From assembly GCA_034521815.1 (NCBI GenBank), contig JAXHLW010000013.1, positions 1,632,001 to 1,696,000 of the forward strand: a DNA stretch of 64,000 bases. Reading direction: 5' to 3'. The stretch comes from Trueperaceae bacterium (GTDB taxonomy: Bacteria; Deinococcota; Deinococci; Deinococcales; Trueperaceae). The notes beneath the pieces are model-generated. The model was given only the letters and a program-made list of their open reading frames with translations, was not told where the DNA came from and did not search any database. Within the stretch, counting starts at the first letter, position 1; each line of letters starts with the position of its first letter. Below, piece after piece: positions 15,808 to 40,303 of the stretch. A program made the position numbers and the translations under genes.

Positions 15808-16365
15808 ATGCCGACCCCTCGCTCGAGCCCGAGGATGATGACGGGCGTGATTCGTGCCGACCCCTCCGATCCGAGCGAGCGTCCAGGTTCCGGCGACGCC
15901 AGCCCCGACGCCGGCCCCGACCACGGCCCCGACCACGGCTCCGACCCCCGTGACGACCTGCTCCACGAGCTCAGCGCGCTGACGCTGCCGATGATGTGGG
16001 CGCTGCGCCAGGCGGCGGTCCGCGCGCTCGAGCCCCTCGGCATCCGGCCGATCAAAGGCCTGGTGCTGGGCCTCGTCGTGGGCGGAACCTCCTCGCCCAA
16101 GGAGCTCACCGAGCTGCTGGACACCGCTCCGCCGATGATGTCCAGCCTGCTGGCCGACCTCGAGGAGCGCGGTCTGATCGTCCGCGAGCTCGACCCCAGC
16201 GACCGTCGTCGCGTGCGTATCCGACCCACCGCCGAAGGCGTCGCGATGACCGAGCGCATCACCGACTTCTGGGTCGAGGCCGGCCGCGAAAGCCTGCACG
16301 AGCTGTCCGACGACGACCTCCGACACCTCATCACGGTGTACCGGACGATCGTGGGGACGCCGTGA
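15808..16365 (+). CDS. MarR family transcriptional regulator
   Basis: LADLEERGLIVRELDPSDRRRVRIRPTAEG; start uncertain. Confidence 0.88.
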   Translation: MPTPRSSPRMMTGVIRADPSDPSERPGSGDASPDAGPDHGPDHGSDPRDDLLHELSALTLPMMWALRQAAVRALEPLGIRPIKGLVLGLVVGGTSSPKELTELLDTAPPMMSSLLADLEERGLIVRELDPSDRRRVRIRPTAEGVAMTERITDFWVEAGRESLHELSDDDLRHLITVYRTIVGTP

Positions 16366-17811
16366 TCCGCGCCGTGGAACGCCGTCGCATCGCCCGGTCG
16401 CTGGCCACCTTGCTTCTGCTGGCGGGAACGGCCTGGGTGGGAACGGCCTGGGCGCAGACGGACGGCGCAGCCGACCCGCCTTCGACCGACCTCGGCCCAG
16501 GCGTCCTGGCCCCGACGGTGGCCCAGCTGCTCGCCGGCATCGACGATCATCCCGCCCTGAGAGCCGCCCGCAGGTCGGTCGACGCCGCCCGGGCGGAGCT
16601 CGCGGCTGTCCGGTTCCCCGTCGCGCTCGAAGGCGAGGTGTCCGCGCAACGTCCGTACGCGTCGGCGACCGCAGTCCCGGGCGTGCCTCAGGACCAGGTC
16701 GACGAGCTGGTGGCCGACGTGGACTGGGTGACCAGCGCGTCGGTCCGCGCCAGGCTGCGACCGTTCCTGGTCGGCGACCTCGCCGATCTCGGTGCCCAGC
16801 GACGCATCGCCGTCGCCCGCGCGGAACGGCGCCTACGCGACACCCGGGCCGAGCTCGAAGCCGCCACGCTCCAGTCCGCAGCCGGCCTGCAGGTCGCCGA
16901 GCAGGGTGTCCGCTTGGCCGAAGCCGGCCTGTCGTTGGCGCGCGAGGCCGCCGACGCGACGGAGGTTCGTATCCGACGCGGTGCGGCCCGCGAACGCGAG
17001 GCGGAGCGCGCGGCGCTCGAGGTCGCCCGCGCGGAGGAGCGGCTCCGCGCCGCGCAGGTCGCCCGCGACCAGGCCGCAGACCGCCTGGCCGATCTGGTGG
17101 GTTCGGACCGTGTCGGAATCGAGATTTCCCTGACCGACCTTCCCGACCTGCCGGTCGCCCAGGCCGAGGACCCCGCGGTCCTCGCCGCCGCGGACGATGC
17201 CACGTTGGCCGCGGTCGCCGTCGCCTCGGCCAGCCGGGGCCTCCTCCCCACCGCCAGCGCCAGCTACGCCTGGAGCACCGACGACGGCGCGCTGAGCCTC
17301 TCGCTCGAGTCGCGGACGTTCCAGCCCACGATCGCGTACGACACGCCAGAACCGTTGGCCGAGCGCGGCCCGCTCGATCGACATCCCGCGCGACGTGGCG
17401 CAGGACGTCCGCGTCGACGCCAGCCTGACGCTCGCGCTGTCGTTCGAGCTGGGGGCGGAGGGCGTGACCGCGGTCGACGCCGCCCGGGCACGCCTGGACG
17501 CCGCCGAGGCGGCCTTGCAGCTGGCACGGACCGACGCCGACCGCGCCGCTGCGGACCGGAGCGAAGCGGTCCGTGCCGCCCGCGCCGACCTGGCGTTCGC
17601 CGGGGCCGACCTGGAGCTGGCCCGGCAGGACGCGGACGACGTCCGTCGCCGCGTCGAGCTCGGCCTGGCCACCCCTCTCGACGCCCTCCGCGCCGACCTG
17701 AGCACGCTCCAGGCCGATCTCGCGGCGCTTCAAGCCCGTCTCGATCTACTCGCAGCCCAGGTCCGCGGCTACCGCGACCTCGCCGTTCCCCTCTCGGAGG
17801 TCCTGCCGTGA
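16362..17811 (+). CDS. TolC-family outer membrane efflux protein, one frameshift near 17370
   Basis: Signal peptide ending AWAQ, HPALRAAR, coiled coils; continues in the 17395-17811 frame (ELGLATPLD). Confidence 0.75.
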
Positions 17812-18878
17812 TCCGCACCATCGCCCTGCGCCCGCTCGTCGCTCCCCTCGCCGCTCCCCTCGTCGCTCCCTTCGCCGTCCTGCTGGCCCTGTTCGCGTCG
17901 CTCCCCGCGACCGCCGCGACCTTGCCGGAAGCGCTCCAGGCAGCCGACCAGCGGACCGGGGTCGTGACCGCCGGCCTGGATCTCGGCGACGCCGAGCGCT
18001 CGCTCGAGCGCACCGTGGCCGACCCGTCCGCGCTGCGGCTCGAGCGCCTCCAGGCCCGCCAGGGAGTCGAGCTGGCCACGGCCCAGCTCCGAGCCGCCCG
18101 GTTCGAGGCCTACACCGACATCGCGTCCGCCTACGTCCAGGTGCTCGAGGCCGAAGCCGGCCGCGCCCTGGCCGAGGACGCCGCGGCCCTTGCCCAACGA
18201 GGACTCGACATCGCCCGCATTCGCCTGGAGCGCGGGGCCGGCACCGAGCTGGACGTCCGCGACGCCGAGACCGACCTGGCCAGCGCACGCAGCGACCTGG
18301 CCTCGGCCCGCCAAGGCGAGGCGCTGGCACGGCGCTCCTTCACCAGCCTGACCGGCTTGGGCGCCGACGATCTTGCGCCCGTGCCAGGCGAGCTCCTGGC
18401 CACCGAGCTGCCGAACGAGAACGCTCTGTACGGTCGGCTCGACCAGGCGCCCACGCTGCTGCAGGCCGCGCACGGCGTCGCGCTGGCCCGAACGGCACGC
18501 GAGCTGCTCGATCCGGCCTACGCCCCGGCCCGCGACATCGAAGCGGCCGAGCTGAGCGTGACGCAGGCGCGTGAAGGCCTGGGCGAGGCCCGCCGCGGCC
18601 TCGAGCTCCAGCTGCGCAGCCTGATCGACCGCGTCGCCGCGGCACGAGACGGGCTGGCGGTCGCCCGCGACGCGCTGGACAACGCGCGCGACCGCGACGA
18701 CGTCGACCGGTCACGGCTCGAAGCCGGCCTGATCGCCGAGATCACCTACGACCAGACGCGCCTGGCGACCGCCCAGGCCCGGCTGTCGGCGATGCAGGCC
18801 CGACACGAGCTGCTGCTCGCGCTCCTGCGGCTCCAATCCGACACCGGCGTTCCGTTGGAGGGTGTCGATGGGTTCTGA
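17808..18878 (+). CDS. Second TolC-family outer membrane efflux protein
   Basis: Signal peptide, RLERGAGTELDV and RLEAGLIAEI motifs; GTGA coupling. Confidence 0.8.
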   Translation: MIRTIALRPLVAPLAAPLVAPFAVLLALFASLPATAATLPEALQAADQRTGVVTAGLDLGDAERSLERTVADPSALRLERLQARQGVELATAQLRAARFEAYTDIASAYVQVLEAEAGRALAEDAAALAQRGLDIARIRLERGAGTELDVRDAETDLASARSDLASARQGEALARRSFTSLTGLGADDLAPVPGELLATELPNENALYGRLDQAPTLLQAAHGVALARTARELLDPAYAPARDIEAAELSVTQAREGLGEARRGLELQLRSLIDRVAAARDGLAVARDALDNARDRDDVDRSRLEAGLIAEITYDQTRLATAQARLSAMQARHELLLALLRLQSDTGVPLEGVDGF

Positions 18879-20178
18879 CGACCGCCCGCGACACCGTCGA
18901 TTCGCGCCCGCCGTGGTCGCTTGCGTGGTCGTGGTCGTCGCTCTGGCGTTCCTCGCCGGCTGCGGCGGCCAACAGGAGACGGCCGCCGCCCCGGGAACCA
19001 GCGCCGCGGGATCCAGCGCGGCGGCGCCCAGTGCTGCGGCGCCCGCCGCCACACCGGCGGACGACGCTCGGCTGGTCCGTACCGTGACGCCCGAGGTCGG
19101 GACGCTGCGAGCGAACCGCTCGGCCAGCGCGCGGATTCGCGCCTTGCGCGAGGCCAGCGTGGCCAGCGGCGCCTCGGCCCGCGTCACCGAGATCCTCGCC
19201 CGCCCGGGCGACGAGGTCGCCGAAGGCCAGCTGGTGATCCGGCTGGACGACGACGCGGCCGCCTTGCGGGCCGATAGCGCGCGCCTGGCGGTGCGCCAGG
19301 CCGAGATCGACCTGGAGCGCGCCCGCCGGGCCAGCGAGGAGGGCGCCTCGCAAGCGCGGGACTCGCTCAGCGCGGCCCAGTCCAACGTCCGGACCGTGCG
19401 CGACCGTGTCGCGGAGGTCCGCGCCCTCGTCGCGGCCGGCGGCGCGGCGCGCGCCGATCTGAACGCGCTCGAGACCCAGCTGGAGCAGGCCCAGGCCTCG
19501 CTGGGGCAGGCCCAGGACGCCGTCGCCCGGGCCGAGCGCAGTGAAGGCGAGGATCTCGCGCTGCTCGAGCTCCAGCTGCAGCAATCCCGCGTCCAAGCCA
19601 GGCAGGCGCAGGACGCGCTGAGCGAGACCGAGATCCGCGCGCCGTTCGCGGGTCAGGTGGTCGAGCTGTTCCTCGAGACCGGCGAGTTCGCCGGGGCCGG
19701 CCAGCCCGCGTTCCGGATGCACAGCCTGGTCGGTCGCGAAGCCGTGTTCGACGTGCCCCCTGAAGACGCCGCGCGCCTGCTGGAGCAGGGCGAGGTGTCG
19801 CTCCGCTACGCCGGGCGCGACGTGCTCGGAACCCTCGTGGCCTCCGCCAGGCCCTCGCAGCAGGCTCGCCTCGTCCAGCTCACCGCCCGCATCGATGGCG
19901 AGGACAGTCGCATCATCCCCACCGGCGCGCTGGCCGAAGTCCGCTACGACATCGCCTTGGCCGACGGCGCGCTGATTCCCTCCGGCGCCATCGCCAGCGA
20001 GTCCGGCGCGACCTGGGTCTACCTGGTCCAGGACGGCGTCGCGACCCGCACGCCCGTCGACGTCCTGGCCGAAGCGGGCGCGATGGCGGCCGTCGCAGGC
20101 ATCGACGAGACCGCCGCCGTGATCCACCCGCGGCCCCTGGACGTCCGCATCGGAACGCGGGTCCGGACCGAGCCATGA
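18868..20178 (+). CDS. RND efflux periplasmic adaptor (MFP), lipoprotein
   Basis: Lipobox LAGC, RPGDEVAEGQLVIRLD, IRAPFAGQV. Confidence 0.9.
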   Translation: MGSDDRPRHRRFAPAVVACVVVVVALAFLAGCGGQQETAAAPGTSAAGSSAAAPSAAAPAATPADDARLVRTVTPEVGTLRANRSASARIRALREASVASGASARVTEILARPGDEVAEGQLVIRLDDDAAALRADSARLAVRQAEIDLERARRASEEGASQARDSLSAAQSNVRTVRDRVAEVRALVAAGGAARADLNALETQLEQAQASLGQAQDAVARAERSEGEDLALLELQLQQSRVQARQAQDALSETEIRAPFAGQVVELFLETGEFAGAGQPAFRMHSLVGREAVFDVPPEDAARLLEQGEVSLRYAGRDVLGTLVASARPSQQARLVQLTARIDGEDSRIIPTGALAEVRYDIALADGALIPSGAIASESGATWVYLVQDGVATRTPVDVLAEAGAMAAVAGIDETAAVIHPRPLDVRIGTRVRTEP

Positions 20179-23100
20179 ATCCGCTGATCCGCTTCTTCGT
20201 CCGTCGCTACGTCTTCGCGATCGCCATCTTCCTGGCCGTGGCGTTCTTCGGCCTCTCGGCCGGGACGCGGCTGGGCATCGAGCTCCTACCGGAGTTCGAC
20301 ATCCCGATCGTCGCGGTGAGCACCACCTACACCGGCGCCGGCTCGCAGGAGACCGCGGAACAGCTGAGCGAGCCGATCGAGGACGCCATCGCCACGGTGC
20401 CGGGCGTGACGGACGTCAGCAGCTTCAGCGGCGAAGGGTTCAGCTTCGTCATCGCCCAGTTCGCCTCCTCGGTCGACGTCGATCAGGCGGCGATCGACGT
20501 CAAGCAGCGCGTCGACGGCATCGTCGACAGCCTGCCGGACGACGCCTCGACGCCCGTCGTCCAGAAGTTCGATCCGTCCGACCAGCCGATCCTGTCGCTG
20601 GCGGTGCAAGGGACCGGCCTGACGCTCGACAGGATCGAAGCGCTCGCGGAGGAGACGATCGAGCCGGTGCTGCAGCAGGTCGACGGCGTCGCCGACGTCG
20701 CCGTCGTCGGACCGATCGCCCGCGAGATCCAGGTGCTCGTCGACCCCGCGGCGCTCCAGTCGTACGGCCTGAGCGCCGGCCAGATCGCGTCGGCGATCGG
20801 CGCCGGATCCGCGACGCTGCCCGCCGGCTCGCTGACGGTCGGGGGCGAGCGCATCCTGTTGTCGCTCCGCGACCGCCCCGAGAGCGCAGAAGACGTCGCC
20901 GAGATGGTGGTCGACCCGGTGCGCGGCCTGCTGGTCCGCGACGTGGCCCGGATCCAGGACACGATCGCGGAGCCCAGCGCCTTCACCCGCCTGAACAACG
21001 AGCCCGTGGTGCTGCTCGAGGTCCGCAAGGTCTCGGGCGCGAACGCCGTCTCGACCGCCCGCGCGCTCAAGTCCCGACTGCGCGGCCTGGAGCTTCCCGA
21101 GGGGGTCGCCGCCACCGTCGTCGGCGACACCTCGGTGTTCGTCGAGAGCTCCGTGATCGACACCGTGCGCGAGACCGGGCTGGCGATCCTGGCGGTCGCG
21201 CTGGTGGTGCTGCTGTTCGTCGGCCGGCTCGGATCGACGTTCAGCGTGGTGCTGGCGATCCCGATCACGCTCCTGGGCGCGGTGGCGATCTTCGGGCTGC
21301 TGGGGTTCACGTTCAACACGGTCACCCTGCTGGCCATCACCGTCGCGGTGGGCCTGGTGGTCGACGATTCGATCGTCATCGCCGAGAACGTCGAGCGCTG
21401 GAGACGCAACGGTGCCGGCGCCATGGACGCCGTGTTCAAGGGCGCGGGCGAGGTGTCCGTCGCGGTGCTCAGCGCGACGCTGTCGCTGCTGGCGGTGTTC
21501 ATTCCGATCGCGTTCCTGCCCGGCCTGATCGGCCAGTTCTTCAGCCAGTTCGGCCTGTCGCTGGCCGCCACGATCTTCGTCAGCTACTTGGAGGCGATGT
21601 TCTTCCTCACGGTTCGCCTGGCGTACCTGCCCGACCCGCTACCGCCCTCCTGGTCCAGCGTCCGCGCGTCGGCCACCCGGATCCGTGCCGACCTGCGGTG
21701 GACCGTGCTCCAGTACCGCCGCCGCTGGCTGGCGGTCGTCGGTGTCGTCCTCGCCGGCGCAGGCGCGCTCGACGGCGCCCGGGGCGGCGTCCTCGCCAGC
21801 ACGCTGGGGCTCGAGGCGGGCGCCCTCGCCGCGCTGGCGCTCGGAACGCTGGGCCTGGCGGTCGCGGCGGCGCTTCCGTGGGCGCTGCTCGTCGTCGGCG
21901 TCCCGACGCGGACCCTCGCGGCCGCGCTGGGCGCGGCGCTGCGCAACGCGCACGAGGCGACCGACGCCGGCGTCCGCTGGCTGCGCGAGCGCTACGCCGT
22001 GGCGCTGAAGGCGATCCTGACGCCGCGCGCCAGCACCATCGTGCTGGTGGTCGCGGTCGCCCTGGTCGCCAGCCTGGGGTGGGTCGTCCCCCGCATCCAG
22101 TTCAACTTCGTCTCCCAGGTCGACGCCGGCGCGGTCGCGGTGACCATCGAGATGCCGCCCGGCACGCCGCTGGAGCGGACCGACGTCGTCTCTTCCACGA
22201 TCGAGCGCGCCGTGGCCGACCACCCGGCGGTCGAGAACGTCGTCGCCTCGATCGGCAGCGGCGGCCTGCTGGGGACCGACAACGCCCAGCTGGCCACCAT
22301 CACGCTGGAGCTCGTCCCGCTGGGCCAGCGAGGCCGCTCGTCGTTCGAGGTGGCGGACGACCTCCGTCCCCGCGTCGCGGCGCTGTTGGCGGACGTCGCG
22401 CCCGAGGCGGACGCGACCGTCGGCAGCGACGACGGAGGCGCCGTGCCGGTCGAGACGGGGCTGGAGCTCAGCCTCCAGGCCAGCGACCTGGACCTGCTCC
22501 GCGAGCGCGACGAGGCGGCCCGCCGCGTGATGCGCGACAGCGCATCGCTGCGCAACGTCGCCTCGTCGCTCGAGGGCTCCGTGACCGAGCGGGTGTTCGA
22601 CCTCGACCGCACGGCGCTGGCGGGGACGGGCCTGACCGCGGCCGAGATCGGCGCGACGCTCCGCACCTACAACGTCGGCACGCGGGCCGGCGACCTCGAG
22701 GCCGGCGGCGAGAACGTCGGCATCGTGGTCCGGGCCGATCCGCGCTTCATCGCCGACGAGCAGACGCTCCTCAGCCTCCCGATCTACGCCCCCGCCCTGC
22801 AGACCTGGCTGCCCCTCTCCGAGCTGGGCCGCTTCCGGGTCCAGGCGGGACCGGTCGCCATCGACCGCGCCAACCAGGCGTACGTCAGCACCTTGACCGC
22901 CGACATCGTCGACGGCGCGCCCGGCCAGTTCCAAGTCAGGAACGATATCGAGGAGGCGTTCGCGGCGGCGGGCGTTACCGACGAGCGCGTCACGGTCGGT
23001 ACCGGCGTGGGACCCGACCTGCTGGGCGACCTGGTGTTCTACGGTCCGCTGGCGTTCCTGCTGGCGATCGCGCTGAACTACCTGGTGATCGCGAGCCAGT

Positions 23101-23612
23101 TCAACAGCTTCAAGTACCCGCTCTACCTGCTCGCCACGGTGCCGCTGGCGCTGGTGGGCGCGTTCTGGCTGTTCTTCCTGACCGGCAGCGCCCTGGACGT
23201 GATCAGCGTGCTGGGGGTGGTGATCCTGATCGGTCTGGTCACGAAGAACGCCATCCTGCTCCTCGACGTGGTCATCTCCGGGCTCGAGGAGAACGAGACG
23301 CTGGAGCGGGCCCTGGTTCGGGCGGGCCGACTGCGACTGCGGCCCATCCTGATGACGGCGCTCACGGTGGTGATCATCAGCGTGCCGCTGCTTCTGGGGC
23401 TGGGCGAAGGCTCGGAGTTCCGCAAGCCGCTGGGCCTGGTGATCGTCGGCGGCGTGGTGTCGTCGACGTTCCTGACGCTGTTCGTCGTTCCCGCGGCGTT
23501 CTTCCGCTTCGAGCGGCACCGCTTCGCCAGCGAGCCGGTGGCCACGTCCCGCGACCTGCCGGCGGCACGGTCCGCCCCGCCACGCGGCGAGGGCGCTGCG
23601 CCGGGCGATTGA
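20175..23612 (+). CDS. RND efflux permease (AcrB family)
   Basis: GLVVDDSIVIAEN, GLVTKNAILL, RLRPILMTALT. Confidence 0.95.
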   Translation: MNPLIRFFVRRYVFAIAIFLAVAFFGLSAGTRLGIELLPEFDIPIVAVSTTYTGAGSQETAEQLSEPIEDAIATVPGVTDVSSFSGEGFSFVIAQFASSVDVDQAAIDVKQRVDGIVDSLPDDASTPVVQKFDPSDQPILSLAVQGTGLTLDRIEALAEETIEPVLQQVDGVADVAVVGPIAREIQVLVDPAALQSYGLSAGQIASAIGAGSATLPAGSLTVGGERILLSLRDRPESAEDVAEMVVDPVRGLLVRDVARIQDTIAEPSAFTRLNNEPVVLLEVRKVSGANAVSTARALKSRLRGLELPEGVAATVVGDTSVFVESSVIDTVRETGLAILAVALVVLLFVGRLGSTFSVVLAIPITLLGAVAIFGLLGFTFNTVTLLAITVAVGLVVDDSIVIAENVERWRRNGAGAMDAVFKGAGEVSVAVLSATLSLLAVFIPIAFLPGLIGQFFSQFGLSLAATIFVSYLEAMFFLTVRLAYLPDPLPPSWSSVRASATRIRADLRWTVLQYRRRWLAVVGVVLAGAGALDGARGGVLASTLGLEAGALAALALGTLGLAVAAALPWALLVVGVPTRTLAAALGAALRNAHEATDAGVRWLRERYAVALKAILTPRASTIVLVVAVALVASLGWVVPRIQFNFVSQVDAGAVAVTIEMPPGTPLERTDVVSSTIERAVADHPAVENVVASIGSGGLLGTDNAQLATITLELVPLGQRGRSSFEVADDLRPRVAALLADVAPEADATVGSDDGGAVPVETGLELSLQASDLDLLRERDEAARRVMRDSASLRNVASSLEGSVTERVFDLDRTALAGTGLTAAEIGATLRTYNVGTRAGDLEAGGENVGIVVRADPRFIADEQTLLSLPIYAPALQTWLPLSELGRFRVQAGPVAIDRANQAYVSTLTADIVDGAPGQFQVRNDIEEAFAAAGVTDERVTVGTGVGPDLLGDLVFYGPLAFLLAIALNYLVIASQFNSFKYPLYLLATVPLALVGAFWLFFLTGSALDVISVLGVVILIGLVTKNAILLLDVVISGLEENETLERALVRAGRLRLRPILMTALTVVIISVPLLLGLGEGSEFRKPLGLVIVGGVVSSTFLTLFVVPAAFFRFERHRFASEPVATSRDLPAARSAPPRGEGAAPGD

Positions 23613-25401: not shown

Positions 25402-27480
25402 ATGGAGTTTCTCGTCATTCTCGTCCCGATCGCCGCGATCGTCGCGCTGTTCGCTGCTTGGCAGCAGGCCAACGGCGTTCTGTCCGCCCCCACCGGCGAC
25501 GCCCGCATGAACGAGATCGCGGACGCCATTCGGCAGGGCGCCAGCGCCTATATGAACCGTCAGTACCGCACGATCTTCGTCGTCGCGCTGATCATCGCCG
25601 CCCTGTTCGCGCTGGTGGCGTACTTTCAGACCGCCCCGCACCAGGCGACGACCTGGTGGTGGACCACGGTCGGCTTCGTCGTGGGTGCGGTCTTCAGCGC
25701 CCTCAGCGGCTACGCCGGCATGAACTTCGCGGTGCGCGCCAACGTCCGGGTCGCTCAAGCCGCGCGTGAGGGGATCCCCGGCGCCCTCAAGATCGCTTTC
25801 GGCGGCGGCGCCGTGTCCGGCCTGGCCGTGGCGGGCCTCGCCCTGCTGGGCGTGTCCGGCTTCTTCGTGCTCTTCGACCTGGTGCTGGGCTTGGCGAACC
25901 CGATCGAGCCGCTGGTGGGCTTCGCGTTCGGCGCCTCGCTGATCAGCCTGTTCGCGCGGGTCGGCGGCGGCATCTACACGAAGGCGGCCGACGTGGGAGC
26001 GGACCTGGTCGGCAAGCTCGAGGCCGGCATCCCCGAGGACGACCCCCGCAACCCGGCCGTGATCGCCGACAACGTCGGCGACAACGTCGGCGACTGCGCC
26101 GGCATGGGCGCGGACCTGTTCGAGACGTACGCCGTGACCGCCATCGGCGCGGTCTTCCTCGGCTACCTCCTGCCGGGAGGGATCGTCTCGGCCCTGGTGA
26201 CGTACCCGCTGGTGCTGGGCGCGATCGCGATCCTGGCGTCCGTCGTCGGGGTGCGTTTCGTCAAGCTGGGCAGCGACGGAAACATCATGGGCGCGCTGAA
26301 CCGCGGCGTGTACACCAGCGCCGCCATCTCGGCGGTCGGCTTCCTGATCGCCTCCGCGCTGATGCTGCAGAATGCGAACGAGCTCCTGGGCACGGGATCG
26401 TGGTTCTCGCTGTTCCTGGCGTCGATGGTCGGCATCGTCGTGACGCTGCTGCTGATGTTCATCACCGAGTACTACACCTCGACCGAGTACGCGCCGGTCC
26501 GGCGCATCGCCAAGGCGTCCGAGACGGGCGCCGCCACGAACATCATCAGCGGCCTGGCGGTCGGCATGCAGTCCACGGCCGCTCCGGTCCTGGTGCTGGC
26601 GTTGGCGACCTTCGGGTCGTTCCTGCTGGGCGGGCTCTACGGGATCGCGGTCGCTGCGGTCGCGATGCTGTCGGTGACCGGGATGGTCGTCGCGATGGAC
26701 ACCTACGGGCCGATCACCGACAACGCCGGCGGGATCGCCGAGATGAGCGAGCTCCCGCACGAGGTCCGCGTCAACACCGACGCCCTGGACGCGGTCGGCA
26801 ACACCACCAAGGCGGTGACGAAGGGGTACGCCGTCGGTTCCGCGGCGCTGGCCGCGCTGGTGCTGTTCGCGGACTACGCCGAGCGGCTGGACCTGGGCGA
26901 GGCGGCGTTCCGGCTGAACGACCCCCTGGTCGTCGTCGGCCTGCTGTTCGGCGCGATGCTGCCGTTCCTGTTCAGCGCGTTCCTGATGGAGTCGGTCGGC
27001 AAGGCCGCCGGCGCGGTGATCGAGGAGGTGCGCCGGCAGTTCCGCGACGTGCCCGGCATCATGGACGGCACCGGCAAGCCCGAGTACGGCAAGGCGGTGG
27101 ACATCGTCACGACCGCCGCCCTGAAGGAGATGGCGGTTCCGGGCCTGATGGCGGTCGTCGCGCCCCTGATCGTCGGCTTCCTGTTCGGCCCGATCGCGCT
27201 CGGAGGACTGCTGATCGGCGTCACCGTCTCGGGTCTGATGATGGCGCTGATGATGTCGAACGGCGGCGGCGCTTGGGACAACGCCAAGAAGTACGTCGAG
27301 GACGGCCACCACGGCGGGCCCGGCTCCGAGGCGCACGCCGCGAGCGTGGTGGGCGACACCGTCGGTGATCCGTACAAGGACACGGCGGGCCCGTCGATCA
27401 ACCCGCTGATCAAGGTGATCAACACCGTGGCGCTCATCTTCGCGGGCCTGATCGCCAGCGTGGGCGGCATCCTGCTCTGA
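25402..27480 (+). CDS. hppA: Membrane-bound pyrophosphatase, K+-independent H+-PPase type
   Basis: [46 protein letters not shown]. Confidence 0.95.
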
Positions 27481-27501
27481 GGCGCGGGGCCCTCACGACA
27501 G

Positions 27502-27541
27502 AGCGATGCGCGCGACCGGAGGTTCGGTCGCGCGCATCGCT
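27502..27541. terminator. Perfect 17-bp hairpin downstream of hppA
   Basis: AGCGATGCGCGCGACCG-GAGGTT-CGGTCGCGCGCATCGCT. Confidence 0.65.
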
Positions 27542-27678
27542 GTCGTCGTTCTCGTCATCGGCCGTTCTCGTCATCGCTGGCCTCGTCCGGCCCCAACTAT
27601 CCATTATACGACGTTTCGCGCCGATGTCATGAAGCGCATTTCGCGGCGCGCGCAGGTCGCTCGGTCGTAGCATCACAG

Positions 27679-27842
27679 GCGAAAGGGAAAGGAGGCACTT
27701 ATAGACGACGAGATGAACCGATCCTTCAACGGAGTCCCTCGATCCCACTAAAGGCTCACCCGCTCATCCCGAACGGCCCGAACAGGGCGACCGAAGACGG
27801 AGGCGACCGAGCGACAAGAGGAGAATCGAGGGACTTCCGTAT
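27679..27842 (+). ncRNA. Putative structured small RNA, copy 1 (family unknown)
   Basis: TAGCAT -10 at 27668-73; stem 27729-43 pairs with 27825-40. Confidence 0.5.
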
Positions 27843-27879
27843 GCGCCCGGCGGGCATCCGTCCGAGGCGCGCGCTCGTT

Positions 27880-27930
27880 TTTGGGGACGCGTGCATCTTT
27901 GGGGCGCGTGCATCTTTGGGCGTGTGCATC
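27880..27930. repeat. 3x TTTGGG(G)(A)CG(C/T)GTGCATC tandem repeat between the cassettes
   Basis: Direct reading of the sequence. Confidence 0.85.
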
Positions 27931-28038
27931 GATGCCGGGGCCTTCGCCAGCCCCAATTTGTAATCATACGCCCATCCGGCCCAAAAGGCTGAATCACATC
28001 TCACCGCGCGCCCAGATCGGTGGGGCGTAGCATCACAG

Positions 28039-28199
28039 GTGAAGGGAGGTTCGCCAATCGAAGAACCGACGAACCAGTCCTTGAACGAAGTTCCTCGATC
28101 CTAGTAGAGGCTCACCCGCTCATCCTGAACGGCCCGAACCGGGCGACCGAAGACGGAGGCGACCGAGCAGGAACAGGAGATCGAGGGGCTTCGTTCGTA
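28039..28199 (+). ncRNA. Putative structured small RNA, copy 2 (family unknown)
   Basis: TAGCAT -10 at 28028-33; 18-bp stem 28083-28100 with 28179-96 including two U-G pairs. Confidence 0.5.
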
Positions 28200-28268
28200 C
28201 CCTGATCCCAACGCACGTCGATCTGCACCTTCCACCCCCGCCGACGCGGGGGCGTCGTAGTCTGGCGT

Positions 28269-29123
28269 ATGCAGCTCCGTTCGCTGGCCGGCTGGACCGA
28301 ATCGTGGTTCGTCGAGGAGGTGCGCGACCTCGGCGACGCCGTCGCGTTGCGCTGCCCGACCGAGCCGACCTTTCGTTGGGGCAACGTGCTGATGATTCCG
28401 GACGCCCCCGAGCCCGGTGACCGCGCGTGCCTCGAGGCGCGCTTCGCCGAGGTGTTCGACGACCTGCCGGAGGTGCGGCACGTCACGGTCGGCTGGGACG
28501 ATCCGGAGGGGCGTGAAGGCGACGTCGCCGAGTGGCAAGCCGCGGGCTACGAGATCGACCGAAACGTGACGCGCGTCGCGGAGGCGGCCGATCTGCACGC
28601 CCCCGCGGGGCGCCCCGCCGGTTTCGCCGTCCGTGCCGCCCGCGACGACGACGACTGGCGTCAGGTCGTCGCGCTGCAGGCGTCCGACCCCGGCGACGAG
28701 GAGCCGACGTCCTACCGCGCGTTAATCCTTGGACGTGCCGCGTTTCGCAGACGCCTGGCGGAAGGAGTGCGACCCGATCTGCACGGGGCGTGGTTCCTCG
28801 CGACCCTCCACGGCGTGCCGGTGGGCAGCATGGGCCTGTTCGTCCACCAGCGCGTCGGTCGGTTCCAGTTCGTGCACGTGGCGCCGGAGCACCGCCGAAA
28901 AGGCGTCGCGACGGCCATGGTCCACGCCGTCGCGCGCGAAGGGCTAGGGCGCATGGGGGCGGAGCGCCTGGTGATCGTGGGGGACGAGGGAACGTCCGCC
29001 GACGGCATCTACGCCGCCCTGGGCTTCCGCGCCGTCGAGCGCCTCGTCGGCGCCTGCCGCAAGGAGCCGGTCGGCGCGGAGCGGCAAAGCGTGGCGCCGG
29101 GGATCACGTCCAAGACAGGATGA
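28269..29123 (+). CDS. GNAT family N-acetyltransferase
   Basis: [21 protein letters not shown]; leaderless TAGTCT-5nt-ATG. Confidence 0.88.
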
Positions 29124-36906: not shown

Positions 36907-37054
36907 CGGAGCAGCGTAGCGTCCATCCATGGGCGCGCTCGTGTCGCGCCGCCGGACGCCGAGATCCAGCTTCGCGGAGAGACGGTTTGGAGGGGCGGCT
37001 CCCGAGCGTTGGCCGCGTGTTGCCAGGCGTGGGGCGATCCCCCTAAACTCGTTC

Positions 37055-40000
37055 ATGGGTCCGTACGTGGTACTGCTCGGCACTCCTTCGATCGAGCGCC
37101 ACGGGAAGCGCATCGAGCTGCCGCCGGGCAAGCTCTCGGCGCTCCTCCTCTACCTCGCCTACGGGACGGGGTGGGCGAGCCGCGACGAGGTGCTCTACCT
37201 CCTCTACCCCGACATGGACGAGCGCCGGGCGCGGGGCAACCTGCGGCCCCTCCTCACCCGGCTGCGGCGCCTGCCCTACGCCGAAGGGCTCGAGATCGAG
37301 CCGACGCGGCTACGGTGGGAGGTCCACACGGACGTCGCCGCATTCCGCGAGGCACTGCGCCTTGATGCGCCGGCGCATGCCGTGGAGCTCTACGGAGGCG
37401 AGCTGTTGGCGGGGTTCCACCTCCCCAACGCACCGGAGTACGAGAGCTGGCTGACGTTCGAGCGGACGGATCTGCGGGAGGCGTGGCGCCGGGCGTCGCT
37501 CGACGTCGCCGCCCGGCTCGAGGAGGACGGACGCGCCGAGGAGGCCGCCGGCGTCCTGGACCGGTTGCAGAAGGACGATCCGCTCGACGAGGAGGTGGTC
37601 CGCCGGTCACTGACGGCGTTGGCTCGTGCGGACCGGCCGAACGACGCGGTGCGCGCGTACGGAGCCTTCGAGCTCCGTCTGCGACGGGAGGTGGACGGGG
37701 AGCCCGAGGAGGCGACGCGCGCGATCGTGCAGGAGATCCGGAGCGGTGGGACGCCCGGAGGCCCGGCCGCCGCGCGGGCGGCGCCACGCCGGCCGCCCGC
37801 GGTCCTACCCACGCCGCCGACCGAGTTCATCGGGCGGGAGCGGGAGGTGGCCGAGATCAGCGGACGGCTGCGCGATCCCGCCTGCCGCTTGCTGTCGATC
37901 GTCGCCGCCGGCGGGATGGGCAAGACCCGAGTGGCGGCCGAGGTGGCGCGCCGTCTCGCGGACGACCATCACGACGGCGTCTTCTTCGTGGCCCTCGAGG
38001 CGGCGAGATCGGCCGGGCAAGCCGTGACCGCCGTCGCCGACGCCATGGCGCTAGCGTTCTTCGGGCCGCGCACCCCGCTCGACCAGCTCCTCGACCACCT
38101 CGCGGACAAGCGCCTGCTCCTCGTGCTGGACAACTTCGAGCACCTCCTCGACGACCCCGAGGGCACGGAGCTGGTGACGGGCCTGCTGGCGCGGGCCCCG
38201 GGCGCGAGCGTGCTGACCACCTCGCGCGAGCGCCTGAACCTGCGGGCCGAGTGGGTCCACGACCTCGACCCCATGGAGCTCCCTGGAAACGAAGACGCGC
38301 AACGCGACGCCGACGCGGTCGTTCTCTTCCTGCAGTCGGCGCTGCGGGCGGGCGTGGACGCCGAGCCGGACCTTCCCGACGTCGTCCGGGTGTGTCGTCT
38401 CACGGGCGGCATGCCGCTCGCCCTGGAGCTGGCGGCGAGCTGGCTGCGGGCCCTCACCGTCGCGGAGATCGCCGAGGAGCTCGGCGGCGGCATCGGCCTG
38501 CTCGCGTCGCCCCTGCGCGACCTGCCCGAGCGGCACCACAGCCTGCGCGGCATGTTCGACGCGTCCTGGCGGCGACTCTCGGAGCGGGAGCGAGGGGCCC
38601 TGCGGCGACTGGCGACGTTCCACGGGGGATTCCGACGGGAGGCGGCGCAGGCCGTGGCGGACGTGAGCCTGCCGCTCCTGCTCACGCTGGCCAACCGGTC
38701 GTTCCTGCGACGGGACGGGACCGGCCGGTTCACGCAGCACCCGCTCATGTGGCAGTACCTCCGAGACGCGGCCCTAGAGGACGAGGCGACCCGCGACACG
38801 GCCGCCCGACACGCCGCCTACTACGCCGCCTTCCTGCATGAGCGCGAGGCGGGCCTGCGCGGCCTCGAAGCACGACGAGTACGTGACGAGATCGGCAGCG
38901 AGCTGCCGAACGTGCGCGCCGCGTGGGCGTGGGCGATCGCCGCGGAGCGGGAGGACCTCCTCGACCTGGCGGCGGAGGGACTCTACATCTACTGCAACGA
39001 CGAGGGTCGCTACCACGAGTCCGAAGCCCTCTTCGCGGCGGGGGTCGACGCCGTCGGCGCCGCCGGGCGAGTGGCGGGGCGGCTCCGCCTCTTCCTGGGG
39101 GGCGCCCACAATTTCCTCGCACGGCCGGACCTCGTGATTCCTGGACTCGAGAAGGCCTCGGCCGTGCTCGCGACCGCGGGCGCGAAACGCGACGAAGCCA
39201 TGGCGCAGATACTCCTGTGGTCCGGCTACTGGATGGCGGACCGCCCGTTCGAGACGTCCGCGTCCGCCGCCCGGCGGGCCCTGCGGCTCTTCGCCGAGGC
39301 GGGCGACCGGGCGGGCGAGGCGGAGGTGATCGGCCTGCTGGCCGAATACACCGAGGATCCGGTCGCCGCGGAGGAGGAGTTCCGGGCCAGCCTGCGCGGG
39401 TTCGAGGCGTCCGGGGCGTGCTTCGCCGTCCTGGGCGGGGTCAGCTTGACCCTGAGCAACTACGCGCTCTTCCTCGGCCAGGTCCACGGCGCGTACGGCC
39501 GCGCTCACGCACTGCTCGACGAGGCCGTCCGCGTGGCACGGCTCCGCGCGGAGCCCTACAGCGTCGCCTGGTACCTCAACAACCAGGCGCACACGCTGAT
39601 CGAAGCGGGATCCTGGGACGAGGCGGCGCGACGGCTCCTCGAGGCGCGCACCGCCGCCGAAGGGCTCGCCTCCGGCTGGGGAACCTGGACGCTCGTCGAC
39701 GCGTTGTACGGATCGGGGCGGATCGCGCTCCTGCGCGGCGAGCACGCCGACGCGAGGCGCCATTTGACCCGCGCGCAGGAGCGGATCGCGACGCACGGGG
39801 ATCCGTTGGGAACGGGAGGCCAGATTCGCGTCGCTCTGGCAGATCTCGCGCTCGCGGAGGGTCGCCCCGACGAGGCCGAGGAGCAGGGCGAGGAGGCGCT
39901 GAGGCACTTCCTCACGCTCGGGCTCCAGAGCGGCATCCGCGAGTGGGGCAAGGCGGACTGCCTCGTCCGGCTCGGCTCGGTCGGCCTCGCGCAGAAGCAT

Positions 40001-40303
40001 GCGTCCGCCGCGGCCGAGCGCTTCGACGCGGCGCTCGCGATCGTCGAGCGCTGGCACCTGCTGCCCCTCGCGCTGCAGCTCGCCGTGGCGGTCGCCCCGT
40101 TCCTCCGCGCGGCTGACCGGGCCACCGAGCACGAGCGCCTCCTGCACCTCGCAGCGGCCTGTCCCGCCAGCACCCGCGAGACGCGGGAGGCCGCGGCGCG
40201 CGCGCTGGGGCGACCCACCGTGGCTGCGGGGCCCGACGAGCCCACCCTTCTCGGTCCCCTCATCGCGGAGCTTCGCGAGGTCGTGCGGGCGATGCGACGG
40301 TGA
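37055..40303 (+). CDS. AfsR/SARP-like regulator: wHTH + BTAD + NB-ARC (STAND) ATPase + TPR
   Basis: LLLYLA..SRDEV..LLYPD, YGGELL.GF..YESWL..ER, DPLDE, PTEFIGRERE, GGMGKT, LLLVLDNFEHL, GMPLALELAA; leaderless TAAACT-5nt-ATG. Confidence 0.9.
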   Translation: MGPYVVLLGTPSIERHGKRIELPPGKLSALLLYLAYGTGWASRDEVLYLLYPDMDERRARGNLRPLLTRLRRLPYAEGLEIEPTRLRWEVHTDVAAFREALRLDAPAHAVELYGGELLAGFHLPNAPEYESWLTFERTDLREAWRRASLDVAARLEEDGRAEEAAGVLDRLQKDDPLDEEVVRRSLTALARADRPNDAVRAYGAFELRLRREVDGEPEEATRAIVQEIRSGGTPGGPAAARAAPRRPPAVLPTPPTEFIGREREVAEISGRLRDPACRLLSIVAAGGMGKTRVAAEVARRLADDHHDGVFFVALEAARSAGQAVTAVADAMALAFFGPRTPLDQLLDHLADKRLLLVLDNFEHLLDDPEGTELVTGLLARAPGASVLTTSRERLNLRAEWVHDLDPMELPGNEDAQRDADAVVLFLQSALRAGVDAEPDLPDVVRVCRLTGGMPLALELAASWLRALTVAEIAEELGGGIGLLASPLRDLPERHHSLRGMFDASWRRLSERERGALRRLATFHGGFRREAAQAVADVSLPLLLTLANRSFLRRDGTGRFTQHPLMWQYLRDAALEDEATRDTAARHAAYYAAFLHEREAGLRGLEARRVRDEIGSELPNVRAAWAWAIAAEREDLLDLAAEGLYIYCNDEGRYHESEALFAAGVDAVGAAGRVAGRLRLFLGGAHNFLARPDLVIPGLEKASAVLATAGAKRDEAMAQILLWSGYWMADRPFETSASAARRALRLFAEAGDRAGEAEVIGLLAEYTEDPVAAEEEFRASLRGFEASGACFAVLGGVSLTLSNYALFLGQVHGAYGRAHALLDEAVRVARLRAEPYSVAWYLNNQAHTLIEAGSWDEAARRLLEARTAAEGLASGWGTWTLVDALYGSGRIALLRGEHADARRHLTRAQERIATHGDPLGTGGQIRVALADLALAEGRPDEAEEQGEEALRHFLTLGLQSGIREWGKADCLVRLGSVGLAQKHASAAAERFDAALAIVERWHLLPLALQLAVAVAPFLRAADRATEHERLLHLAAACPASTRETREAAARALGRPTVAAGPDEPTLLGPLIAELREVVRAMRR

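Follow-up and report, generated by a model that had tools for sequence, protein, structure and literature searches.

Between the H+-pyrophosphatase gene hppA and a gene for a GNAT acetyltransferase, a 64,000-nucleotide (nt) stretch of the genome of a Trueperaceae bacterium (GenBank assembly GCA_034521815.1, contig JAXHLW010000013.1, positions 1,632,001 to 1,696,000; hereafter the window, in whose numbering all coordinates are given) carries two adjacent homologous units. We consider it probable, at roughly 0.8, that each unit is an independent, functional member of a new family of plus-strand small RNAs (sRNAs) of about 160 nt. On our best reading the family is previously undescribed; its general kind, the structured bacterial sRNA, is familiar and its 5' domain is unusual. 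The RNA covaries, occurs nearly family-wide in the Trueperaceae, is usually single-copy and apparently abundant, and is absent from Rfam; it would be a well-supported new structured RNA family for a phylum with few characterized regulatory RNAs.

Two homologous units arising from a tandem duplication

The hppA gene of the window (25402-27480) was recognized from its translation, and a homolog at another locus matches the Pfam domain H_PPase; the GNAT gene (28269-29123) matches the Pfam domain Acetyltransf_1 (E = 1.4e-10). The interval from the stop of the former to the start of the latter contains two homologous units on the plus strand, A and B, whose RNA bodies and subfeatures are given in Table 1. 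A repeat search recovers from them a 124-nt direct repeat (27701-27824 and 28057-28180) with 84% identity at a spacing of 356, and a MAFFT alignment of 27590-27900 with 27950-28260 (311 nt per unit) gives a mean column identity of 83%, the cores of the two units differing at 2 positions in ~60 nt. When unit A is compared by BLAST with the whole genome (2.63 Mb, 83.5% complete), unit B is its sole homolog (E = 5.7e-44); the next-best match is 23 nt long with an E-value of 0.049, and the remaining ones have at most 23 nt and E-values of at least 0.049. Since the genome holds only two copies, the units are a local tandem duplication and not a dispersed repeat. Repetitive extragenic palindromes (REP) and miniature inverted-repeat transposable elements (MITE) were rejected as explanations, given two adjacent copies here and a single copy in 93 of the 97 genomes with a match to the family.

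Copy A of the window genome (G000) clusters with copy A of a second genome, G007 (support 97/96), and the B copies of these two genomes are 93% identical, which indicates that the duplication predates the split of the two species, both of which have retained the two paralogs. The assembly of a further genome, G004, breaks within the repeat, with an A-like 5' half adjoining hppA and a B-like 3' half adjoining GNAT, which fits a third species that has kept both paralogs. The sequence of the apical loop is common to both copies of one genome, yet differs between G000 and G007, a pattern that points to concerted evolution as at least part of the origin of the near-identity of the cores; such a process would help explain why the core is far better conserved than the flanks between the two copies. 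Copy A, with 4 extra nt inserted in its 5' end, is the faster-evolving of the two, and copy B is the copy closest to the single copies of related genomes.

A sequence-only reading of the window had described the two units as paralogous plus-strand RNAs of about 160 nt, each with its own TAGCAT -10 box, a long closing stem and a near-identical core, had seen no credible long open reading frame (ORF) in them, had placed them in no known family and had named a scattered REP or MITE among the outcomes that would overturn its view. This part of it has stood up well: the units, boxes and stems lie where it put them, unit B is the only other copy in the genome, homologs with covarying stems exist, and RNA contigs from two studies, unstranded and derived from relatives, cover the units.

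A two-domain fold on the plus strand

Across 66 homologs the RNA has a hairpin, P1, as its 5' domain and a long rod, P2, as its second. The minimum free energy (MFE) folds of both copies contain the P2 closing stems listed in Table 1. Plus-strand folds have z-scores of -3.14 (A) and -2.54 (B), and of 200 shuffles none (A) and one (B) reach the same stability; on the minus strand the MFE is lower (-60.9 and -63.5 kcal/mol) and the z-scores are no better (-2.16 and -2.48). An alignment of 11 sequences from the genus showed 9 compensated pairs in the closing stem and served to build a covariance model, R1; a second model, R2, was built from the 66 aligned homolog matches. The structure was refined by mutual information across these 66 homologs before pairs were counted, and in the refined structure 92.8% of the alignment cells are standard pairs. 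Shuffling the columns lowers this share to 74.8%, with none of 500 shuffles as high as the real alignment, and displacing the partners by 1-3 columns (slid controls) lowers it to 37-49%. Of the 40 pairs, 33 have compensatory changes, among them every one of the 12 in the P2 closing stem; the model's own, unrefined structure has 88.7% of cells paired and 35 of 42 pairs compensated. The base pairs are thus supported by covariation beyond the controls. The cells with G-U outnumber those with A-C by 75 to 13 in P2 and by 63 to 22 in P1, and hits of the covariance model score 141-188 bits on the plus strand as opposed to 20-30 bits on the minus strand, which argues for the plus strand as the RNA strand.

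The internal loops are among the best-conserved parts of P2. The loop CACUAGAG / ARGAAAA is nearly invariant across the 66 homologs, three of the four pairs of the GCUC/GAGC helix are kept in every homolog, a 3x3 loop displays non-Watson-Crick covariation (G-A 23, G-G 21, A-C 14), and the CG pairs beyond this loop are also among the conserved positions. A purine-rich internal loop of ~8 by 7-12 nt has helices on either side. The apical hairpin of P2 varies in length and sequence between genera. Upstream of the RNA, RNAalifold predicted no pairs in the 100 nt preceding it in 51 homologs. These data redraw the interior of the RNA as the sequence-only reading had pictured it, namely a constant core flanked by variable, guide-like internal loops and pairing better on the minus strand. 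The supposedly variable loops belong to the best-conserved parts of the family, the apical hairpin within the core is its variable part, and both the z-scores and the family-wide G-U bias speak against the minus strand. Of that interpretation, the paralogous structured plus-strand RNAs of a new family are retained, and the constant-core architecture and minus-strand pairing are given up.

Distribution and relation to known RNA families

A cmscan search of 27400-28400 against all 4227 families of Rfam 15 at E <= 10 gave no match on either unit; its nine weak matches all fall on the terminator hairpin of hppA or on the spacer between the units, and the whole window has 0 matches at the gathering score. 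The 6S RNA model (RF00013) has no match in the window genome at E <= 10 and a single weak one in five complete genomes of the family (E = 0.86, 15.8 bits), a result that says little, since control genomes of Deinococcus and Thermus likewise yield low scores. Signal recognition particle (SRP) RNA and transfer-messenger RNA (tmRNA) were mapped elsewhere in the window genome, and we therefore ruled out that the sRNA is either of them. In the full-text literature on small RNAs of Trueperaceae and Deinococcus and on hppA-linked motifs, with subscription journals outside its scope, our search returned nothing relevant.

The placement of the window genome in Deinococcota is borne out by its ribosomal protein uL2, whose nearest chains in the PDB are those of Thermus thermophilus and Deinococcus radiodurans (472 and 465 bits, compared with 365 for the group that follows). 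BLASTN detects the element in nine of the ten further genomes of the genus; of 50 more distantly related genomes, none has it. With R1, full-length matches were recovered in 97 of 128 genomes of the same family of the Genome Taxonomy Database (GTDB), representing 28 of its 36 genera; 93 of these 97 genomes have one match and four have two. R2 finds the RNA in 32 of 36 genomes of the family as against 0 of 114 from four other families of the order, and, in a phylum-wide sample, in 11 of 12 genomes of the family as against 0 of 138 others. On these searches the RNA is confined to one family of Deinococcota and is usually single-copy. A link to phages was also considered and dropped: 74 viral contigs contain a 14-base core pattern, and 0 of them match R2. 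One complete genome, G029, has two nearly identical copies (L038 and L067) with identical 75-nt upstream flanks, 1.65 Mb apart, and hppA lies upstream of just one of them.

Predicted promoter and transcript ends, and hints of expression

A TAnnnT box lies at most 20 nt upstream of the RNA in all 65 homologs with enough flank, and in 51 of these it ends 8-9 nt before (A)AGGAGG. In an alignment of 51 sequences its T, A and T columns are invariant and the three middle letters vary freely. This is the signature of a -10 element, which suggests that each RNA gene has its own promoter box and that the transcript should start 1-2 nt before AAGGAGG. The 3' end seems to lie just past P2, where low-GC members have a T-run and high-GC members, including both window copies, do not; for the latter, termination at this point is tentative.

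Expression data came from five metatranscriptome runs of two studies, on ice and sediment, each of which contains 7-16% of the words sampled from a 1.2-kb stretch. The contigs of four runs (X1-X4) were mapped; they are 90-100% like the window and thus derive from relatives. The summed contig depth in X1 is 223, 161, 533 and 393 across 28038-28201, compared with 104 and 30 in two upstream bins, 27.5 just downstream and 4.9 on GNAT. X2 has a depth of 53-92 over the RNA versus 16 downstream, X4 has only low-depth contigs on the RNA bodies, and those of X3 leave the RNA bodies uncovered. These data hint that the RNA is expressed, and apparently abundant, in relatives of the window organism.

Some observations weigh against the units being sRNA genes with the extent, expression and importance proposed here. 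The alignment used for pair counting was fitted to the model structure, which biases the counts towards that structure. The slid controls, which preserve the relatedness of the sequences, lie far lower. No -35 box is evident, and a T-run (at least four T) past P2 is found in only 16 of the 66 homologs. The metatranscriptome contigs are unstranded and without true transcript ends, and their depth is a contig-wide mean and a poor gauge of expression; moreover, RNA libraries can contain DNA. One X1 contig with a depth of 90 reaches ~70 nt upstream of the predicted start, so that the true 5' end could be farther upstream, or there could be longer precursors. The RNA is not essential for the family, since some of its members with 92-99% complete genomes have no match. 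As to the connection to the ribosome proposed below, the AAGGAGG motif behind it could instead serve pairing in P1 or a protein.

A second invariant box is found ~75 nt upstream of each RNA. On the plus strand it has the form A-N3-TA, equivalent to TAnnnT on the minus strand; its A-N3-TA columns are invariant in 51 of 51 aligned homologs, and UUGGG comes after it on the minus strand. In copy A the minus-strand promoter-like arrangement ATGACA-16-TATAAT matches at 11 of 12 positions, with 0.1 such sites expected in shuffles. A promoter at this box would fire antisense, towards the 3' end of hppA. The box accompanies the RNA even at loci without hppA upstream.

The 5' hairpin resembles a masked translation-initiation region

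The 5' end of the RNA reads AAGGAGGU in 54 of the 66 homologs, and a GGAGG-like motif is present in 64. The 3' tail of the 16S ribosomal RNA of the window genome reads ACCUCCUUUC, ending in ...GGAUCACCUCCUUUCU, and the full form of the 5' motif, GAAAGGAGGU, is a perfect 10-nt complement of it; this exact 10-mer is present in 17 of the 66 homologs and in neither window copy. The corresponding DNA word GAAAGGAGGT occurs four times in the window genome, once as 16S antisense and three times 5-6 nt before ATG or TTG, which argues that such motifs act as true Shine-Dalgarno (SD) sites in this organism. Within P1 the SD-like motif pairs with a CUUCU/CUCCUU strand, where pair 13-60 is G-U in 31 homologs and G-C in 30. 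An AUA or AUC triplet (AUM) lies in the P1 loop, 5-8 nt downstream of the SD-like motif, and the 66 homologs have C (35), A (30) or U (1) as its third letter and never G. The SD-like motif has a mean predicted pairing probability of 0.76 across homologs, the triplet one of 0.26.

A UAG is conserved farther downstream, at a distance of 50-56 nt from the SD-like motif, with modulo-3 classes of 41, 15 and 10 among the 66 homologs. AUM and UAG share a frame in 43 of 62 sequences; of the 19 in which they do not, 13 still have UAG when read by eye, so that its conservation is that of an RNA element rather than of a stop codon. Entropy differs little between the codon positions (1.02, 1.10 and 1.26), and the two window copies share no ORF. 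A small ORF from an upstream GTG was rejected on account of frame-shifting indels in three members of the genus, and an ORF from AUA/AUC was judged unlikely in view of the frame, the entropies and the modulo-3 distances. With the frame not kept, the entropies flat and all three modulo-3 residues represented, P1 looks like an imitation of an initiation region and not a functional one.

Genomic context

Of the 66 loci, 35 have hppA on the same strand no more than 610 nt upstream of the RNA, and 12 have GNAT downstream. Strict coupling to hppA was rejected: of five RNA-less genomes of the family that were tested, four have hppA, and beside the hppA of RNA-less family genomes no RNA was found (best 11.1 bits, E = 0.21). 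RNAduplex comparison of the RNA with the hppA start region, run on long sequences, yielded uninformative whole-length pairings with z-scores from -2.1 to +3.4 and no common site. Within the genus the RNA precedes a same-strand GNAT gene by 68-177 nt in 8 of 8 loci reaching that far, and GNAT homologs follow it in four loci of other genera. In 22 of 31 loci the closest downstream ORF with Pfam support is convergent; the families of these ORFs differ, among them aldehyde dehydrogenase, GH94, methylpurine glycosylase and GHMP kinase. With downstream genes mostly convergent and unrelated, we regard it as excluded that the RNA serves in general as the leader or riboswitch of a conserved gene downstream. 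In the window, a -10-like TAGTCT ends 6 nt before the ATG of GNAT, which points to a leaderless GNAT mRNA with a promoter of its own.

Two further kinds of neighbor were noted. In the genus g6 (L031-L050) a gene of the baeRF_family10 (bacterial eRF1-like) is encoded in 9 of the 10 listed loci, ~0.5 kb downstream of the RNA on the same strand and after a short unannotated ORF (Pfam E = 1.5e-18 in L032); no such gene was found in the genome of the window. At L064, L088, L068 and L087 a second H+-pyrophosphatase gene, on the opposite strand and ~50% identical to the window hppA, adjoins the RNA, and in L068 it is the convergent downstream gene.

Table 1. Features of the two units and their flanks (window coordinates)
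Feature	Coordinates	Strand	Basis or remark
Upstream box, copy A	27590-27630	-	Plus strand GCCCCAA..ATTATAC; minus-strand promoter-like ATGACA-16 nt-TATAAT
Predicted -10 box TAGCAT, copy A	27668-27673	+	Sequence; TAnnnT conserved among homologs
Predicted sRNA, copy A	27679-27843	+	R1 match 27685-27843, 155 bits; fold
P1 hairpin, copy A	27688-27726	+	AAAGGAGG (27688-95) pairs with UCCUU (27722-26); AUA (27701-03) in loop
P2 rod, copy A	27729-27840	+	Closing stem 27729-44/27825-40; encloses internal loops and core 27752-27812
Weak hairpin followed by five T, possible terminator after copy A	27863-27882	+	Read by eye; hairpin not called by program scan
GC hairpin (27937-54), then upstream box of copy B	27937-27969	.	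Hairpin terminator-like in scan; box by alignment
TATGAT, minus-strand -10-like, in upstream box of copy B	27963-27968	-	Alignment
Predicted -10 box TAGCAT, copy B	28028-28033	+	Sequence; homolog alignment
Predicted sRNA, copy B	28039-28201	+	R1 184.2 bits, R2 120.2 bits; RNA-contig depth
P1 hairpin, copy B	28041-28082	+	GAAGGGAGGU (28041-50) pairs with GUCCUU (28077-82); AUC (28057-59) in loop
P2 rod, copy B	28083-28196	+	Closing stem 28083-100/28179-96; fold and covariation
GC hairpin CCCCCGC..GCGGGGG, then TAGTCT upstream of GNAT	28235-28271	.	TAGTCT ends 6 nt before ATG

Possible functions and alternative explanations

The RNA would act in trans, as a regulatory or housekeeping RNA, with the invariant P2 loops binding a protein or other partner and P1 serving as a masked translation-initiation mimic that couples the RNA to 30S subunits or to the fidelity of initiation. 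That its mechanism is directed at the ribosome at all is a tentative proposal, prompted by the sequence of P1, and we would hold the opposite to be the better wager. More doubtful still is the specific form of it in which the RNA is a ribosome-directed decoy or sensor and the 5' hairpin masks the mimic of an initiation site: up to 10 nt of complement to the 16S tail and a near-cognate AUA/AUC at start-codon distance would dock the 30S subunit, or might instead signal how faithful initiation is or how many free 30S subunits are available. An engaged ribosome would unwind P1 together with the 5' strand of P2, and this unwinding would release or capture the partner bound at the invariant P2 loops. 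We know of no described sRNA in which a 5'-terminal near-perfect ribosome-binding site (RBS) and an internal masking strand occur together with a start-like triplet from which AUG is absent. If the RNA does communicate with the ribosome, it would represent a new mode of translation regulation; if it has no such link, it would still be a clean candidate for a new RNA-protein complex. In the Deinococcus-Thermus phylum leaderless mRNAs are reportedly common, according to PMC5741613, which cites Zheng et al. 2011; a decoy or sensor RNA, if real, could shift the balance between SD-led and leaderless translation in such a lineage.

Parts of this architecture have counterparts in known systems. RNA thermometers such as ROSE and fourU are hairpins that sequester the SD sequence in the 5' untranslated region of an ORF with a canonical start. 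As in these, the SD-like motif of the present RNA pairs with a U/C-rich strand, including G-U pairs, and an initiation triplet is nearby; unlike in these, no conserved ORF follows the hairpin, which is the 5' domain of an sRNA. The gene infC encodes a conserved protein from a non-canonical AUU start that is discriminated against by initiation factor 3. Its initiation region and the present RNA are alike in joining a good SD to an AUH triplet; in our RNA, in contrast, the frame is not conserved. The raiA-motif RNA and the Deinococcus Y RNA are lineage-restricted, independently transcribed orphan structured sRNAs whose conserved loops suggest a protein partner. Lineage restriction, structure, a predicted promoter of its own and conserved loops are also features of the present RNA, which nevertheless has no Rfam match to them and differs in its motifs and its P1/P2 architecture.

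Among the rival explanations, one that we hold to be unlikely is that the RNA is a tiny mRNA or dual-function sRNA, in which the SD drives synthesis of a peptide of 12-21 residues from AUA/AUC to the conserved UAG, while the near-cognate start and the pairing of the SD keep initiation low and might permit a response to initiation factor 3. The spacing of 5-8 nt between the SD-like motif and AUM is ideal for initiation, the genomic GAAAGGAGGT sites ahead of ATG or TTG act as real SDs, and 56 of 62 sequences have an open frame of 12-21 codons, which runs in phase with UAG in the 43 noted above; this frame is, however, lost in the other 19, most of which still have the UAG. The stop varies among UAG, UAA and UGA within the genus, and the absence of AUG from the triplet in all 66 homologs is as expected if inefficient initiation were selected. 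The same homologs have no canonical start codon there, the codon-position entropy is nearly flat, any similarity of the peptides tracks nucleotides that are constrained by P1 and P2 pairing, and by our estimate an open stretch of ~15 codons arises by chance about half the time. We give a little less credence again to an equivalent of 6S RNA, the P2 rod and its bubble mimicking an open promoter and sequestering the RNA polymerase holoenzyme. 6S RNA is a single rod whose 5' and 3' ends form a closing stem around a large central bubble. The present RNA is similarly a usually single-copy, family-wide, apparently stand-alone gene that looks abundant in metatranscriptomes and has a rod-like domain with a purine-rich internal loop between helices, and the want of a convincing RF00013 match in the family could make the 6S slot look empty. 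That slot says little given the poor scores of the model in the Deinococcus and Thermus controls, and the locus itself has no similarity to RF00013. Moreover, the 5' end of the present RNA is not paired with its 3' end, its first 50 nt being a separate hairpin with an RBS motif, which is in no 6S RNA known to us; its closing stem (12+2 bp) and bubble are smaller than those of 6S RNAs as we know them, and the sequence conservation of its loops points to a sequence-specific partner.

A cis-regulatory leader of GNAT, such as a riboswitch or attenuator duplicated as a tandem pair, appears improbable. The consistent same-strand placement upstream of GNAT in the genus and the GNAT homologs after the RNA in four loci of other genera would favor it, yet GNAT follows the RNA in so few of the 66 loci, the nearest downstream gene elsewhere is so often convergent and of an unrelated family, and in the window itself GNAT has its own TAGTCT box and is separated from the RNA by a GC hairpin, with the depth of RNA contigs falling from 393 through 27.5 to 4.9 between the RNA and GNAT. 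Least probable of all, in our estimate, is that there is no functional RNA and that the units are a DNA-level cassette of divergent promoters and operator sites or the remnant of a mobile element. The second invariant -10-like box ~75 nt upstream, pointing in the opposite direction, and an upstream region conserved in sequence and not in structure would be compatible with such a cassette. Against it, compensatory changes in stems ~90-170 nt apart and the G-U asymmetry point to RNA pairing, the genome has two copies only, none of the viral contigs with the core motif match the model, and the unit is covered by RNA contigs at high depth. An sRNA family acting in trans hence remains our preferred reading.

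Other features of the window

The spacer between the RNA copies contains, at 27881-27930, three head-to-tail units of 17 nt (TTGGGGACGCGTGCATC and variants), and the metatranscriptome contigs of relatives carry 151 different letters in place of the inter-copy spacer. Just past the 17-bp terminator-like inverted repeat of hppA (27502-27541), an exact 14-nt direct repeat, CGTTCTCGTCATCG, occurs twice at a spacing of 16 (27547-27576). Farther away in the window we noted a resistance-nodulation-division (RND) efflux operon with an outer-membrane factor, an HlyD-like adaptor and an AcrB-like pump (15996-23612), and a gene for a BTAD/NB-ARC/NACHT/TPR protein of 1124 residues (36929-40303).

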